The notes under the pieces: model-generated
What the model saw: only the letters and a program-made list of their open reading frames with translations
The model's database searches: none
What the model was told of the DNA's origin: nothing
From: a virus
Lineage: Duplodnaviria; Heunggongvirae; Uroviricota; Caudoviricetes
Virus record (IMG/VR): IMGVR_UViG_2778261249_000005
Strand: one strand, 5' to 3'
DNA: 4,738 nucleotides
Made by a program: the position numbers and the translations under genes
Part shown: positions 80-4,738 of the stretch, in pieces
Layout: each line of letters opens with the position of its first letter
Position numbering within the stretch: position 1 is the stretch's first letter

Positions 80-1945
80 ATGAGCACAAAATTCAGAACC
101 GTTATCACCACTGCCGGTGCAGCAAAGCTGGCAGCGGCAACCGCGCCGGGAGGGCGGAAGGTCAACATTACCACGATGGCCGTCGGGGATGGAGGTGGTA
201 AATTGCCTGTCCCGGATGCCGGACAGACCGGGCTTATCCATGAAGTCTGGCGACATGCGCTGAACAAAATCAGCCAGGACAAACGAAACAGTAATTATAT
301 TATCGCAGAGCTGGTTATTCCGCCGGAGGTGGGCGGTTTCTGGATGCGTGAGCTTGGCCTGTACGATGATGCGGGAACATTAATTGCCGTGGCGAACATG
401 GCCGAAAGTTATAAGCCAGCTCTTGCCGAAGGCTCAGGGCGTTCGCAGACCTGTCGCATGGTCATCATCGTCAGCAGTGTGGCCTCAGTGGCGCTGACCA
501 TTGACACCACAGCGGTGATGGCGACGCAGGATTACGTTGATGACAAAATTGCAGAGCATGGACAGTCACGACGTCACCCGGACGCCTCGCTGACCGCAAA
601 AGGTTTTACTCAGTTAAGCAATGCGACCAACAGCACGTCTGAAACACTGGCCGCAACGCCGAAAGCGGTAAAGGCCGCGTATGATCTTGCTAACGGGAAA
701 TACACTGCGCAGGATGCCACCACAGCGCGAAAAGGCCTTGTCCAGCTCAGTAGCGCCACCAACAGCACGTCTGAAACGCTCGCCGCAACACCAAAAGCGG
801 TAAAGGCAGCATATGACCTTGCTAATGGGAAATACACTGCACAGGACGCCACCACAGCGCGAAAAGGTCTTGTCCAGCTCAGTAGCGCCACCAACAGCGA
901 TTCTGAAACGCTGGCTGCAACACCAAAAGCGGTGAAGTCTGCCTATGACAATGCTGAAAAACGTCTTCAGAAAGATCAAAATGGCGCGGATATTCCTGAT
1001 AAAAGATTATTCCTGCGCAATATTGGAGCAACAAATTCAACAACCATGTCTTTTAGTGGTGGTACAGGATGGTTCAGGCTGGCAACTGTAACCATGCCAC
1101 AGGCCAGTTCCGTGGTTTACATAAGTCTGATTGGTGGTGCTGGATATAATGTTAACTCCCCTATGCAGGCTGGTATATCTGAACTTGTTCTTCGTGCGGG
1201 AAATGGAAATCCAAAAGGTCTTACTGGTGCGTTATGGCGACGGACATCGGTTGGATTTACTAATTTTGCATGGGTGAATACATCCGGTGATACCTATGAT
1301 GTTTATGTTGAAATAGGTAATTACGCCACAGGTGTTAATATTCAGTGGGATTATACCAGTAACGCCAGCGTAACGATTCATACATCACCAACTTATACAG
1401 CGAATAAACCAACAGGTCTTACAGATGGAACTGTATATGTAATTTACAGTTCGCACATTAAACCGACTGCTGCTGATGTTGGGGCGTTGTCATTATCTGG
1501 AGGTCAATTGAATGGTGCACTGGGCATCGGAACATCCAGTGTTCTTGGCGGTAACTCAATTGTTTTGGGTGATAATGACACGGGCTTTAAACAAAATGGT
1601 GACGGTAATCTGGATGTTTATGCTAATAACGTTCATGTTATGCGCTTTGTCTCCGGTAGCATTCAAAGTAATAAAACCATAAATATTACGGGTCGTGTTA
1701 ATCCCACAGATTACGGTAACTTTGATTCCCGCTATGTCCGGGATATCCGGCTTGGTGGTGCTGCCACATACAAACCTGCGAACAATGGCATGACATGGAC
1801 ACATCAGGCACCGTCCGGGTGTGTATATTCCGGCATTATTATTCAGGATACCGGCTCAAACTCTGCCGATAACATTGGTGGCGTATATTACAGACCGGTG
1901 CAGAAATACATTAACGGGACATGGTATAACGTGGCACAGGTATAA
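80..1945 (+). CDS. H: Tail fibre protein (P2 gpH-like), 621 aa; conserved N-terminal baseplate-attachment region, divergent distal receptor-binding region
   Basis: N-terminus MSTKFRTVITTAGAAKLAAATAPGG…GLIHEVWRHALNKISQDKRNSNYIIAELVIPPEVGGFWMRELGLYDDAGTLIAVANMAESYKPALAEGSGR closely matches my recollection of P2 gpH. Internal motif GGNSIVLGDNDTGFKQNGDGNLDVYAN and C-terminus RPVQKYINGTWYNVAQV are also gpH-like. GAGG at 72-75 precedes ATG at 80. Confidence 0.95.
   Translation: MSTKFRTVITTAGAAKLAAATAPGGRKVNITTMAVGDGGGKLPVPDAGQTGLIHEVWRHALNKISQDKRNSNYIIAELVIPPEVGGFWMRELGLYDDAGTLIAVANMAESYKPALAEGSGRSQTCRMVIIVSSVASVALTIDTTAVMATQDYVDDKIAEHGQSRRHPDASLTAKGFTQLSNATNSTSETLAATPKAVKAAYDLANGKYTAQDATTARKGLVQLSSATNSTSETLAATPKAVKAAYDLANGKYTAQDATTARKGLVQLSSATNSDSETLAATPKAVKSAYDNAEKRLQKDQNGADIPDKRLFLRNIGATNSTTMSFSGGTGWFRLATVTMPQASSVVYISLIGGAGYNVNSPMQAGISELVLRAGNGNPKGLTGALWRRTSVGFTNFAWVNTSGDTYDVYVEIGNYATGVNIQWDYTSNASVTIHTSPTYTANKPTGLTDGTVYVIYSSHIKPTAADVGALSLSGGQLNGALGIGTSSVLGGNSIVLGDNDTGFKQNGDGNLDVYANNVHVMRFVSGSIQSNKTINITGRVNPTDYGNFDSRYVRDIRLGGAATYKPANNGMTWTHQAPSGCVYSGIIIQDTGSNSADNIGGVYYRPVQKYINGTWYNVAQV
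611..957 (+). repeat. Imperfect direct tandem repeat, period 132 bp (44 aa), about 2.6 copies, inside the tail-fibre CDS
   Basis: Unit starts at 611, 743 and 875 (copy 3 partial and divergent). Encoded units: (T)QLS(N/S)ATNSTSETLAATPKAVKAAYDLANGKYTAQDATTARKGLV ×2, then QLSSATNSDSETLAATPKAVKSAYDNA. Copies 1 and 2 differ at roughly 15 nucleotide positions by hand alignment. Corresponds to the phage tail-fibre repeat motif. Confidence 0.9.
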
Positions 1946-2551: not shown

Positions 2552-2729
2552 AAAAGCGGGCGTTGATCACATGGGCTATGCTAACCCATTATAACAGTGT
2601 AACAGAGCTACCCACGATTACTCCCGGCCTCTAAAGTTTGCTACATAATAAAGAATCATTCCCTTTAATCTGATCTTAGCGGTATAGTATCTGGTGACCA
2701 GTAAGACAATCACCGACACTACAATCATG

Positions 2730-2757
2730 TTGATTTGCATTGTGTTTAGTCTAAAAT
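2730..2757 (+). promoter_or_regulatory. Candidate sigma70 promoter for the cargo cassette: -35 TTGATT (2730-2735), 16-nt spacer, -10 TAAAAT (2752-2757)
   Basis: Hexamers read by eye. Position about 50 nt upstream of the ATG at 2807 is appropriate. AT-rich DNA yields many chance hexamer matches, so confidence is low. Confidence 0.3.
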
Positions 2758-2806
2758 TGTGGTGCGAAAAGACCAATGAAAGTTATTGATAATAAGGAGG
2801 AATCAA

Positions 2807-3592
2807 ATGTCAGGAATAAGATGGTTGGATAAAAAAGATTTAATCCTTAAAGGAATAAATGAAGGCACCTACCCAGAATCAGTTTACAAGTTCAGAACTA
2901 TAGATAAAGCCTGTGATATTCTTCAAAAAAAAGAATTTTACTTTTCATCAGCGGAAAATTTTAATGATCCATTTGATTGTATGCTGGATGAGGAAAAAGA
3001 ATACTCTTTATCAGACTTTACTTGTTGGTTATATTCATATCAGAATGGATTAACCAAGAAGGCAAAGCAGAACTTAATAGATGTGTATAAAGAAAACAGC
3101 CAAGCATTTAATGATCTAGTTAAAAATATAAAAACAAAAGCCGTCAATGCCCATGGCATTTTATCGCTATCTAAAACTAATGAAAATGTTCTTTTATGGT
3201 CTCATTATGCGGAGAACCATACCGGAGTTGCTATAAAACTCAATATTGCTAAGGATCCAGAGTTCTTTATAACCCCCCAAAACATAGTATATATGAAGCA
3301 ATATATTCCATTAAATTATCTTAGAGACCCTAAAAAATCAATACTCGACACACTCTCTACGAAATCAATGGATTGGAATTATGAAGAGGAGATTAGAGTT
3401 TATAAAAGTAATATTGGAGCCTATAAGATTAAGCCAGAGGCAATAACTGATGTTTTTTTTGGTTTGAAAACGCTGGAACAGGATATTGCAAAAATCAAAA
3501 ATATATGTAGTGAAAATGGTCTAAGCCATGTGAAGTTTCATCGGGCTGAAAAAAAATATGGAGAATTTGCGCTACGTTTTAATCCTATTTGA
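2807..3592 (+). CDS. Hypothetical protein with DUF2971-like motifs, 261 aa; cargo gene 1
   Basis: Strong Shine-Dalgarno AGGAGG at 2795-2800, 6 nt before ATG 2807. The six-frame track begins at TTG 2786, which I consider less likely. The protein carries an FNDPFD motif (aa 52-57) and an LLWSHYAENHTGVAI motif (aa 129-143), which match my recollection of DUF2971 (PF11185) hallmarks (…fNDPfE… and …lMWshYAd.hkG…). Very AT-rich with a Lys/Asn/Ile-rich composition unlike the flanking phage genes. Confidence 0.75.
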   Translation: MSGIRWLDKKDLILKGINEGTYPESVYKFRTIDKACDILQKKEFYFSSAENFNDPFDCMLDEEKEYSLSDFTCWLYSYQNGLTKKAKQNLIDVYKENSQAFNDLVKNIKTKAVNAHGILSLSKTNENVLLWSHYAENHTGVAIKLNIAKDPEFFITPQNIVYMKQYIPLNYLRDPKKSILDTLSTKSMDWNYEEEIRVYKSNIGAYKIKPEAITDVFFGLKTLEQDIAKIKNICSENGLSHVKFHRAEKKYGEFALRFNPI

Positions 3593-3678
3593 CTTTTCTA
3601 TTTAGTAGTTAAATGATAGTGCATTACGGGCCAATTAAATTTAATTCTATGGTTGTGTAGACAATAAAAGGTAACTAG

Positions 3679-4164
3679 ATGAATCAAGATGAGTTAAAAA
3701 ATTTTTGTGTTGATGTGCGTGAAGCACTTGAGAAGATGACCAAAAAAGATCATTCACGGCTGTCATCCTTTAGAAATTCGAACTTTCCAGTGGGATGCTG
3801 CGGAGATACATCGAAACTGCTTGCTTATTTGCTTTATCAGCAATTCGGGATAGTCTCTGAAGTACTCGCAGGATATTACTATGAATCTGATCATAAGTCC
3901 CCCGCCAGCGGTCTTTCAAACGGTAATTCACATGCTTGGCTTGTCGTGGATGGAATGATTGTTGATTTGACTGCAGATCAGTTCAACGACCGGGGATATA
4001 ACAATCTTCCCGTCATGATTACATCAGACACTAGGTTTCATGACCTCTTTGCCAATCGTAATGCCTCGTTTCAACCTTCTCAAGGTAATGAAATTATTCT
4101 ACCTGATATTCTAAAAATGACAGCATCACATGTGCAGCAAAGGCTTAAAGAGCGAGGTTGGTAA
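3679..4164 (+). CDS. Hypothetical protein with transglutaminase-like / papain-fold Cys-His-Asp signature (putative cysteine peptidase or amidase), 161 aa; cargo gene 2
   Basis: AAGG at 3668-3671 precedes ATG 3679, which is immediately preceded by an in-frame TAG. Motif GCCGDTSKLLAYLLYQQFGIVSEVLAGYYY (Cys40/41, codons 3796-3801), then SHAWLVVDGMIVDLTADQF (His85 at 3931-3933; Asp100 at 3976-3978), resembles the transglutaminase-like core (G-C-x-x-fA … HAW-x-E-V … D-P-T). Same strand and composition as cargo gene 1, 86 nt downstream, so likely co-transcribed. Confidence 0.75.
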   Translation: MNQDELKNFCVDVREALEKMTKKDHSRLSSFRNSNFPVGCCGDTSKLLAYLLYQQFGIVSEVLAGYYYESDHKSPASGLSNGNSHAWLVVDGMIVDLTADQFNDRGYNNLPVMITSDTRFHDLFANRNASFQPSQGNEIILPDILKMTASHVQQRLKERGW

Positions 4165-4484
4165 TGCGGGTGCAGCAGAATCTAAAGCTGATACTTAAAA
4201 TTATATAGGAAGAGCATAAACTTATCCTAAATCTGGCTGTAATAGATCCTTTCATATATCGGCCAGATTAATATGAAGTAATCCAAATTAGTGTCTGAAA
4301 ATATAATCAGCTCCATAACAATAGATTTATCGCTTAAAAATAACGTCAACATGAGGGTAGAAAACATCCCTAAAGATAAGTCTGGTCTAACCTTTGCTCC
4401 TCGCTCAAAGCAGACTGTCAGAATTGATAGCGTTTGGGCTATGTAAATTGTCAGTCGGAAAATGAGTGAGTACAAATCAGGACA

Positions 4485-4511
4485 GGCGGGCGAATTGCCC
4501 GCCTTTTCTTT
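4485..4511 (+). terminator. Rho-independent terminator: stem GGCGGGC (4485-4491) / GCCCGCC (4497-4503), loop GAATT, followed by TTTTCTTT
   Basis: Perfect 7-bp GC-rich stem plus U-tract on the + strand, seen directly. Lies about 320 nt downstream of cargo gene 2 and about 100 nt upstream of FI, so it plausibly insulates cargo transcription from the late sheath operon. Confidence 0.6.
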
Positions 4512-4607
4512 ATCTGTTGTTTCATCCACTGACCAGTCAGGTCAAATAGCGTCTCATGCTCTGCACAACAGAAAATAGTTGCACCCATTAACCACGGAGT
4601 TAAACGG

Positions 4608-4738
4608 ATGAGTGACTATCATCACGGCGTGCAGGTTCTGGAAATTAACGACGGCACCCGTGTCATTTCCACCGTATCCACTGCCATTGTCGGCATGGTC
4701 TGCACGGCCAGCGATGCGGATGCGGAAACCTTCCCCCT
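4608..4738 (+). CDS. FI: 5' end of tail sheath protein (P2 gpFI-like), truncated at window end
   Basis: [43 protein letters not shown] closely matches the recalled N-terminus of P2 gpFI. GGAG at 4596-4599 precedes ATG 4608. Confidence 0.92.

Follow-up and report, generated by a model that had tools for sequence, protein, structure and literature searches.

A probable nested mosaic tail fibre gene (H) in a P2-like prophage, with an exchanged segment extending into chaperone gene G

Organization of the tail fibre locus

The 4738 nt stretch of DNA analysed here (the window) carries genes in the order I, H, G, cargo and FI, which is the order found in P2 and in 123 phage records, and the Pfam domains of the locus agree with this P2-type arrangement. 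As is usual for a P2-type H, the tail fibre gene is preceded by baseplate gene I and followed by assembly gene G, and the FI sheath operon lies downstream. The P2 I stop lies 10 nt upstream of H, and positions 1–805 of the window are 96.5% identical to P2. The protein encoded by H is already present in RefSeq, where an exact sequence look-up identifies it as WP_097290091.1. By homology, H is predicted to bind the host receptor and to form the six tail fibres of the virion. The features to which we refer are as follows, all on the plus strand.

1–69, +: 3′ end of baseplate/tail gene I; P2 backbone, collinear with P2 I
80–1945, +: gene H, tail fibre protein of 621 aa; ORF with Pfam Phage_tail_fib (PF12571) and Phage_fiber_2 (PF03406)
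80–580, +: N-terminal tail-collar/baseplate-attachment domain of H, aa 1–167; P2 backbone, G+C 0.55, PF12571
581–976, +: three tandem 44-aa Phage_fiber_2 units, aa 168–299, from TRF and PF03406; the last part of the third diverges, passing into the linker
966–999, +: crossover zone encoding QKDQNGADIP, where P2DC1-like proximal and Mu Sv-like distal similarity overlap in the DNA alignment
968–1755, +: Mu-type 'Sv' variable cassette, with the lowest GC3 (0.23–0.40) and similarity to the vB_YpM_5 cassette
1046–1441, +: portable middle module, aa 323–454, tentatively a beta-sandwich
1442–1747, +: block with the conserved GGNSIVLGDNDTGFKQNGDG motif, aa 455–556, homologous to the distal shaft of gp37 and Mu S
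1748–1891, +: 'type B' variable tip block, aa 557–604, co-inherited with the G N-terminal domain
1892–1942, +: conserved C-terminal end RPVQKYINGTWYNVAQV, aa 605–621, from sequence comparison
1949–2476, +: gene G, tail fibre assembly protein (Tfa) of 175 aa; Pfam Caudo_TAP (PF02413)
1949–2278, +: N-terminal domain of G, aa 1–110, within the exchanged cassette; low G+C in the first 85 codons

The proximal part of H is typical of the P2 family. Residues 1–151 match the entire PF12571 profile (E 9.7e-59), which places this region among the tail-collar domains, and the N-terminal domain is 96–100% identical to those of P2, P2_AC1, P2DC1 and KKo009. Over aa 1–160, identity with P2, P2_AC1, P2DC1 and P24E6b ranges from 84% (P24E6b) to 99%, and over aa 1–250 the protein is 94–99% identical to P2-family H proteins, with P2 itself at 94%. 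The original prediction of a GC-rich, P2-H-like proximal part (G+C 0.551) is thus borne out. Three stretches matching PF03406 follow (E 6.2e-61), so that the units belong to the Phage_fiber_2 repeats, and TRF reports a repeat of period 132 with 2.5 copies at nt 626–949. The 44-aa repeat is present in three copies in the window, two in P2, four in KKo009 and five in ECC-1470.

The same allele is found elsewhere. The H proteins of KKo009 (WP_001537281) and ECC-1470 (WP_041520905) are 99–100% identical to that of the window block for block, and differ from it only in the number of repeats. KKo009 also shares G and the two cargo genes, whereas ECC-1470 carries other cargo after G. Uniform similarity to a single known H, with no compositional breakpoint, had been named as the observation that would speak against a mosaic. 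Full-length matches do exist in these two strains, but a breakpoint was computed (below), and because both proteins represent the same mosaic allele, a full-length match does not refute the mosaic.

These genomes also bear on whether the module junctions, or the repeat number, might stem from chimeric joining, or from collapse, of sequence from two co-resident P2-like prophages. The window is the entire 4738-bp contig recorded with H, a short draft contig that begins and ends in the conserved backbone genes I and FI, and its three copies of the 132-nt repeat compare with four or five in complete genomes that carry the same allele. Nevertheless, we regard an assembly artefact as very improbable. 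KKo009 is a complete E. coli chromosome with the same arrangement of I, H, G, both cargo genes and FI at an overall identity of 99.0–99.3%, and with 100.0% identity over nt 968–2476; moreover, the distal H plus G cassette is present in 87 of 5426 complete genomes. All of the module junctions are therefore real, the repeat count of three in the window being set apart from this statement.

Composition and ancestry of distal H

The original prediction placed a switch from P2-like, GC-rich to AT-rich sequence at about nt 960, with loss of similarity to P2 beyond it, and both the break and the loss are confirmed. Between nt 80 and 958 of H, G+C is 0.551 and GC3 is 0.56, and between nt 959 and 1942 these values are 0.435 and 0.338. 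The maximum-likelihood change point for G+C is nt 943 (log-likelihood ratio 13.9 versus at most 8.9 among 300 shuffles), that for GC3 is nt 898, and GC3 counts differ across the break with p = 3e-8 by Fisher's test. When examined by block, GC3 is 0.53–0.68 in the proximal part, 0.23–0.40 in the Sv cassette, about 0.5 in the tip, 0.35–0.42 in the N-terminal half of G and 0.53–0.62 in its C-terminal half. By blastn, similarity to P2DC1 stops at 996 and similarity to vB_YpM_5 begins at 968. The predicted start lies within about 10–40 nt of the mapped crossover zone.

The break had also been taken as the signature of horizontal exchange, and this part of the claim does not hold for a lineage-specific event. 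We used eight other P2-like phages, P2 included, as a control sample, and every H tested shows the drop, with GC3 of 0.52–0.60 in the first 250 codons and 0.42–0.47 in the remainder. Low G+C in distal H and in the N-terminal half of G is common to the P2-like phages tested, including the H and G genes of P2 itself. The composition break in H is real, yet it is not special to the window. Because the drop is generic to P2-like H genes, it is uninformative on when or in which lineage an exchange occurred, and we dropped it as a dating marker of lineage-specific acquisition. The drop falls at synonymous sites (GC3 0.56 to 0.34), and is thus not an amino-acid effect.

Evidence on ancestry comes instead from the alignments. 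P2 gpH and gpG resemble the products of the window in gene order, tail-collar domain, Phage_fiber_2 repeats, GDN motif, the C-terminal 17 residues and a 175-aa Caudo_TAP G. However, P2 H has two repeats rather than three, and the region at aa ~296–604 is replaced in the window by other modules. Over aa ~250–448 the two proteins match only where repeats align on repeats, without true homology, and P2 H has no counterpart of aa 323–454. P2 also carries an insertion of about 70 aa downstream of the GDN block. Over aa 449–621 identity is 36%, and the alignment includes 70 gap positions. This residual similarity is carried by two short blocks, GGNSIVLGDNDTGFKQNGDGNLDVYAN (aa 490–516, nt 1547–1627) and RPVQKYINGTWYNVAQV, which are the conserved blocks that had been predicted to be shared with P2. 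Accordingly, DNA matches to P2 in the distal half are restricted to nt 1544–1626 (84%) and to nt 1891 onward (77%).

The cassette at nt 968–1755 has a relative in the invertible segment of the Muvirus vB_YpM_5, where a cassette beside hin shares 92.5% DNA identity with it and identifies it as an Sv homologue. The match to the Sv protein starts at the QNGADIP linker and reaches aa 556, with 95% identity (95% over aa 323–556; 82% over aa 323–621). In vB_YpM_5 a gix-type site and the same linker lie ahead of the cassette and, as in the window, a 175-aa Tfa comes next. The tip and G N-domain of vB_YpM_5 are of another type, with 29% and 71% identity to those of the window. That distal H differs in ancestry from the proximal part, as originally predicted, is upheld by 92–95% identity with a Muvirus and P1-like phage-plasmids whose other genes are unrelated.

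Within the cassette, the middle module (aa 323–454) is 95% identical in a Muvirus and about 95% identical in P1-like plasmids, occurs also in ST64B and T4-like gp37, and turns up in phages of unrelated types (298 records); its similarity to the H proteins of P2, P2_AC1, P2DC1 and P24E6b is not detectable. The beta-sandwich assignment is tentative because the structural model, which represents a monomer of a trimeric fibre, is of moderate confidence (mean pLDDT 66). The block that follows, aa 455–556, is 89% identical to P24E6b H, 95% to vB_YpM_5 Sv and 55% to P2, and aa 487–559 match the S16 gp37 tip fragment (PDB 6f45), which corresponds to the GDN block. The Pfam gp37_trimer profile gives a weak match of 18.6 bits, below its cut-off of 21.7.

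We also considered membership among T-even gp37 proteins and rejected it. Alignment to gp37 of Tequatrovirus F2 is limited to the middle module (aa 834–970 of gp37, 48% identity) and the GDN motif, whereas the window lacks the N-terminus of gp37, its His-rich needle/head tip and any gp38 system. The last ~230 aa of F2 gp37 have no counterpart in H, and the chaperones are unrelated: G and the F2 assembly protein match with E 0.004 across 42 aa, which is not significant.

The tip block (aa 557–604) is 96–98% identical to those of P2DC1, P24E6b and ECC-1470 and 17–38% identical to P2-type tips, the tip of P2 being of type A and that of the window of type B. The short tail fibre of phiTE (9cuy) is a sequence relative, with E 2e-18; this entry was rejected as a solved type-B tip because only its N-terminal residues 3–92 are modelled. 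The terminal 17 residues are 82–100% identical in 14 of 14 other H or S sequences, regardless of tip or G type. They are conserved in Mu S as well, whose linker and C-terminal region are sequence homologues of those of H and whose complex with Tfa has been solved (5yvq).

Taken by block, H comprises at least four ancestry units with separate distributions rather than the two halves originally proposed. Breakpoint positions were taken from a spread sample of matches in E. coli genomes, in which partial matches begin near nt 1460, 1712–1724 and 1886, at or adjoining conserved blocks.

Another reading dispenses with exchange and holds that distal H is the fast-evolving end of a gene of P2-like ancestry, altered in place by diversifying selection, its low G+C reflecting amino-acid or codon constraints on fibres. 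The short blocks shared with P2 do show common ancestry of the fibre architecture, and with low G+C in distal H and the N-terminal half of G in all P2-like phages tested, composition alone is no proof of foreign origin. In-place divergence is nonetheless very unlikely, marginally more so than an assembly artefact. It leaves a segment (aa 323–454) with no detectable similarity to four H proteins that are 84–99% identical over aa 1–160, a middle module about 95% identical in a Muvirus and P1-like plasmids, blocks that are differently distributed among loci sharing the same G, and a drop in G+C that occurs at synonymous sites.

Least credible of all is a remnant of an invertible Mu/P1-type segment still alternating between two host ranges: the cassette is 92.5% identical to one beside an invertase and is joined in the linker that follows a gix-type site in vB_YpM_5, but gix/hix/cix-like sites are absent from the window (degenerate pattern, up to 3 mismatches allowed), no invertase gene and no opposed or inverted Sv′-U′ cassette occur among its ORFs, unrelated cargo and then FI follow G, and a P2-type fibre repeat occupies the position equivalent to gix. 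Membership among invertible tail fibre segments was rejected on these grounds; unlike the Mu and P1 segments, the window holds a cassette fixed in one orientation with no alternative, and the cassette alone is shared.

Pairing of the chaperone with the fibre tip

Gene G begins 4 nt past the H stop, and aa 40–175 of its product match PF02413 (E 1.5e-33), which identifies it as a Caudo_TAP protein. The exact G sequence is present in 114 contigs, its cluster has 1446 members, and identity is 96% to P24E6b G and 74% to P2 G. The gene is divided internally. G+C is 0.376 in codons 1–85 and 0.541 in codons 86–175, and identity to P2 G is 69% over aa 1–110 versus 83% over aa 111–175. Full-length type-A partners give 67–73% and 77–88% for the same two regions. 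As judged from these identities, G has the two-part Tfa build of a variable N-domain and a conserved C-domain. The swapped unit had been described within H, but given the diverged first half of G and its low G+C (0.38, with 69% identity to P2 G), the exchanged unit passes the H stop into the N-terminal half of G.

The type of the G N-domain follows the type of the tip. Among 15 H–G pairs (the window and 14 others), a type-B tip is always paired with a type-B G N-domain (at least 95% identical), and type-A tips are paired with type-A G N-domains that are 67–73% identical to that of the window. When IMG/VR loci were examined in which G is of type B and H is readable (n = 71), the type-B tip was present in all 71, the same GDN block in 21 and the same middle module in 10.

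Because the C-terminal 17 residues are unchanged across G types and aa 557–604 track the type of the G N-domain, the data point to the variable tip block as the probable chaperone contact, away from the C-terminal block to which this role had been assigned. In phage Mu, the fibre is bound by the non-conserved N-terminal domain of Tfa, and the conserved C-domain drives trimerisation (PMC9608196).

Since the tip and G are neighbours, physical linkage could by itself explain why they co-occur perfectly, with no selection for matched pairs.

Proposed origin and function of the mosaic

Overall, the original interpretation of H is partly supported. The region is very probably the distal, receptor-recognising portion of H in a P2-like (Peduovirus) E. 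coli prophage, making up a single functional cassette with the N-domain of G. On the alignments above, H itself is a nested mosaic of a P2-family N-terminus, repeats, a Mu/P1-type Sv cassette with inner modules, and a type-B tip. The P2-family attachment domain and a variable number of 44-aa repeats make up the proximal part, which is joined inside the conserved linker QKxQNGADIP to a cassette like the variable 'Sv' of Mu- and P1-like invertible tail fibre segments. The cassette holds the portable module, putatively a beta-sandwich, and the conserved GDN-motif shaft block, and the type-B tip is inherited jointly with the N-terminal domain of G.

We infer that recombination may occur at short conserved blocks, namely the linker, the GDNDTGFKQNGDG motif, FDSRYVRD and the C-terminal end, with co-resident prophages and infecting phages as the likely exchange partners. 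The N-terminal domain of G would fold and trimerise the fibre tip, as in Mu, and G may stay bound. The tip and G, possibly with the middle module, could then bind a cell-surface saccharide, most likely a variant of the LPS core other than that used by P2, with a different host range as the consequence. A host range changed from that of P2, as originally proposed, is plausible on this basis. The receptor of P2 is LPS, and natural fusions of the P2 fibre with the fibres of other phages are known (PMC9594776).

Where P2-based particles are to be retargeted, the block map offers natural, already functional splice points: the crossover in the QKDQNGADIP linker, the junctions at the GDN motif and FDSRYVRD, and the tip block with the N-terminal domain of G. 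In such designs the chaperone should be exchanged together with the tip. Basic understanding is little affected by the mosaic in H. Since 1992, when mosaic P2 tail fibres were reportedly described by Haggard-Ljungquist, the mosaic tail fibres of P2, Mu, P1, lambda and T-even phages have served as textbook cases of horizontal exchange, and the module shuffling in the window is of this long-known, common kind.

A similar case is the P2-like Yersinia phage L-413C. PMC7460101 (after Garcia et al. 2008) describes its H as a four-region mosaic proposed to set host specificity, with a P2-like N-terminus of 207 aa that matches P2 H at 91% or more, foreign middle regions and a partly P2-like C-terminus; the altered specificity of the phage was attributed, as a proposal, to this mosaic origin. 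Set side by side by that description, the H proteins of L-413C and the window are the same kind of object with other inserted modules.

Organization and occurrence of the locus

The window comes from an Escherichia coli prophage of the P2-like (Peduovirus) type and has the following layout.

nt 1-69, 3′ end of baseplate gene I
nt 80-1945, tail fibre gene H (621 aa)
nt 1949-2476, tail fibre assembly gene G (175 aa; Pfam Caudo_TAP)
nt 2565-4395, cargo island of low G+C with two ORFs
nt 2786-3592, + strand, cargo ORF of 268 aa, DUF2971 protein
nt 3679-4164, + strand, cargo ORF of 161 aa
from nt 4396, pF region, with the start of sheath gene FI at nt 4608

The H protein is matched exactly by RefSeq WP_097290091.1, an entry recorded on a single 4738-base contig; the window is therefore a draft contig in full. 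Both contig ends (nt 1-79, gene I; nt 4396-4738, pF region and FI start) lie inside conserved P2 backbone, the pattern expected when short-read assembly breaks at sequence common to several P2-like prophages per genome.

The mosaic described below is not an artefact. In the complete E. coli KKo009 chromosome this locus, I through FI, recurs at 99.0-99.3% identity, rising to 100.0% over nt 968-2476; one additional 132 nt repeat is the sole difference. In 11 complete genomes a single place holds 80% or more of gene H, and 87 have the distal H plus G cassette. Database relatives of the distal half of H number 4771 at E <= 1e-5, and almost all bear names of phage tail or tail fibre proteins from E. 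coli and Salmonella. H represents a familiar type of tail fibre allele, ordinary and already on record; Haggard-Ljungquist, Halling and Calendar reportedly found in 1992, as their title states, that P2 tail fibre gene segments are horizontally transferred among unrelated phages. For the P2-like phage L-413C, H was described as a mosaic of four regions proposed to set specificity (PMC7460101), and P2 fibres have already been re-engineered on the mosaic principle (PMC9594776). The useful addition here is only the detailed block map and the pairing of the fibre tip with the N-terminal domain of G.

Block structure and composition of H

The original prediction held that a P2-like proximal half is fused to a divergent distal half acquired by horizontal exchange. 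The observation was correct and its interpretation broadly right, with the mosaic standing and the picture of two halves giving way, on sequence comparison, to a nested mosaic of several blocks. Residues 1-250 share 94% identity with P2 H. In the protein alignment the following 200 or so residues have no true counterpart in P2 H, and residues 449-621 align at only 36% identity with 70 gap positions, an alignment carried by the two short blocks (aa 490-516 and 605-621) that had been excepted from the divergence. P2 DNA likewise matches the distal half only at nt 1544-1626 and from nt 1891 onward. Comparison with P2-like phages, one Muvirus, one P1-like plasmid and two complete E. coli genomes gave the following blocks.

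aa 1-167, tail-collar domain, 96-100% identity with P2, P2_AC1, P2DC1 and KKo009
aa 168-299 (nt 581-976), three tandem 44 aa Phage_fiber_2 units with a 132 nt period
nt 966-999, crossover zone encoding QKDQNGADIP
nt 968-1755, Mu-type cassette, 92.5% identity with the cassette of Yersinia Muvirus vB_YpM_5
aa 323-454, portable module inside the Mu-type cassette, found in 298 phage records
aa 455-556, GDN-motif block, 89% identity with P24E6b H and a match to the S16 gp37 tip fragment 6f45
aa 557-604, variable tip block, termed type B (the P2-type tip being type A)
aa 605-621, conserved C-terminal end, kept in every fibre compared

Within the crossover zone the two similarities overlap, that to P2DC1-type H ending at nt 996 and that to the Mu-type cassette starting at nt 968, which places the proximal join within a conserved linker. 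In the standard view of tail fibre genes, short conserved blocks serve as recombination joints. In a sample of hits (not a census), partial matches in E. coli genomes start repeatedly near nt 1460 (shortly upstream of the GDN block), 1712-1724 (FDSRYVRD) and 1886 (conserved end); exchange at H probably proceeded through such blocks.

Repeat number differs among otherwise near-identical H alleles (three Phage_fiber_2 units in the window, four in KKo009 and five in E. coli ECC-1470; P2 has two), which implies fibres of different length. In a draft contig this short, the count of three could reflect short-read collapse.

The predicted compositional breakpoint was confirmed. G+C is 0.551 and GC3 0.56 over nt 80-958, falling to 0.435 and 0.338 over nt 959-1942 (third-position counts, Fisher's test, p = 3e-8). 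By maximum likelihood the change point falls at nt 943 for G+C (log-likelihood ratio 13.9, against a top value of 8.9 among 300 shuffles) and nt 898 for GC3.

GC3 along H and G
Proximal H: 0.53-0.68
Mu-type cassette: 0.23-0.40
H tip: about 0.5
G, N-terminal half: 0.35-0.42
G, C-terminal half: 0.53-0.62

The break assigns the distal cassette to a different gene pool. The drop is not peculiar to the window: in eight P2-like phages (P2, P2_AC1, P2DC1, P24E6b, pro147, 12474III, Wphi and P37), GC3 falls from 0.52-0.60 over the first 250 H codons to 0.42-0.47 over the rest, the window value of 0.36 being somewhat more extreme, and the N-terminal half of G lies at 0.33-0.42 in all eight. The distal-module pool as a whole is A+T-richer than the P2 backbone. 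The break therefore neither dates nor localizes an exchange, and the case for exchange relative to P2 rests on the sequence comparisons.

Relatives of the distal cassette and pairing with G

In vB_YpM_5 the counterpart cassette lies inside an invertible segment adjoining the hin invertase, with a gix-type sequence, GGTTTGCAGGAA, and the same linker as in the window lying ahead of it. A switchable H was rejected, since no gix-like site, invertase or opposed cassette was found in the window; H is a fixed fibre gene. The vB_YpM_5 segment (2890-5700) holds two opposed cassettes of variable fibre part (Sv) and chaperone (U), both with a type A tip and a type A-like U N-domain and with differing upstream modules; all products are annotated 'hypothetical protein', and the Sv ORF is begun at an internal Met.

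The portable module occurs at 95% identity in Yersinia Muviruses and one P1-like phage, at 55% in ST64B and SJ46, and at 48% in a T4-like gp37 (aa 834-970 of 1204). Of 5426 complete E. coli genomes, 242 contain it, and plasmids account for more than half of its places. In the P1-like phage-plasmid pC5104 (E. coli C51, 93 kb), a 1474 aa tail fibre (774-5198) contains it, with 94.7% nucleotide identity to nt 1034-1503, and is followed by truncated tail fibre assembly and recombinase genes; this locus looks like a decayed invertible C-segment.

The exchanged cassette extends into part of G. Codons 1-85 have a G+C of 0.38 and the remainder 0.54; identity with P2 G is 74% overall (69% over aa 1-110, 83% over aa 111-175) and 96% with G of P24E6b and P2DC1, both of which carry a type B tip. 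Tip type and G N-domain type agreed without exception in 15 H-G or S-U pairs (the window and 14 others). Among 80 IMG/VR loci encoding type B G, 71 had a readable H, and all 71 carried a type B tip (at least 90% identical); 21 of these shared the GDN block and only 10 the middle module. Tip and G N-domain thus behave as one unit joined to several upstream modules. That they form a matched pair is something we infer, because physical linkage of adjacent DNA could yield the same co-occurrence. Such a unit fits phage Mu Tfa, whose N-terminal, non-conserved domain binds the distal fibre, trimerization being driven by the conserved helical C-terminal domain (PMC9608196); the C-terminal region of H is homologous in sequence to Mu S as solved with Tfa in complex 5yvq. 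The last 17 residues of H, proposed earlier as the contact with G, are the same whichever chaperone type is present, and that idea was accordingly corrected.

Predicted function and cargo genes

By homology, H would form the six tail fibres and G would help them fold. In an AlphaFold2 model of aa 294-621 (mean pLDDT 66) the middle module folds as all-beta, and most of its 10-residue blocks score pLDDT 66-87; this is only a hint that it might bind sugars. Foldseek with this model also recovered Mu S (5yvq) and S16 gp37. The phiTE short tail fibre (9cuy) has a type B tip in its sequence; the 9cuy model lacks the tip. P2 adsorbs to LPS (PMC9594776), which Mu fibres also recognize (PMC11915804). 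Because tip, chaperone N-domain and middle module are all unlike those of P2, the window allele likely binds an LPS-core or other surface saccharide different from that of P2.

The cargo island (G+C 0.35) lies between G and FI, where P2 has Z/fun. Along its full length, the 268 aa ORF is matched by PDC-S31, a candidate anti-phage defence family in PADLOC (E 2.6e-46); the 161 aa ORF had no PADLOC hit and a sub-threshold YunG match only. The KKo009 prophage has the same two cargo genes, and other P2-like phages carry fun(Z), a SMEK-domain protein, a metal-binding protein or hypothetical proteins at this position.
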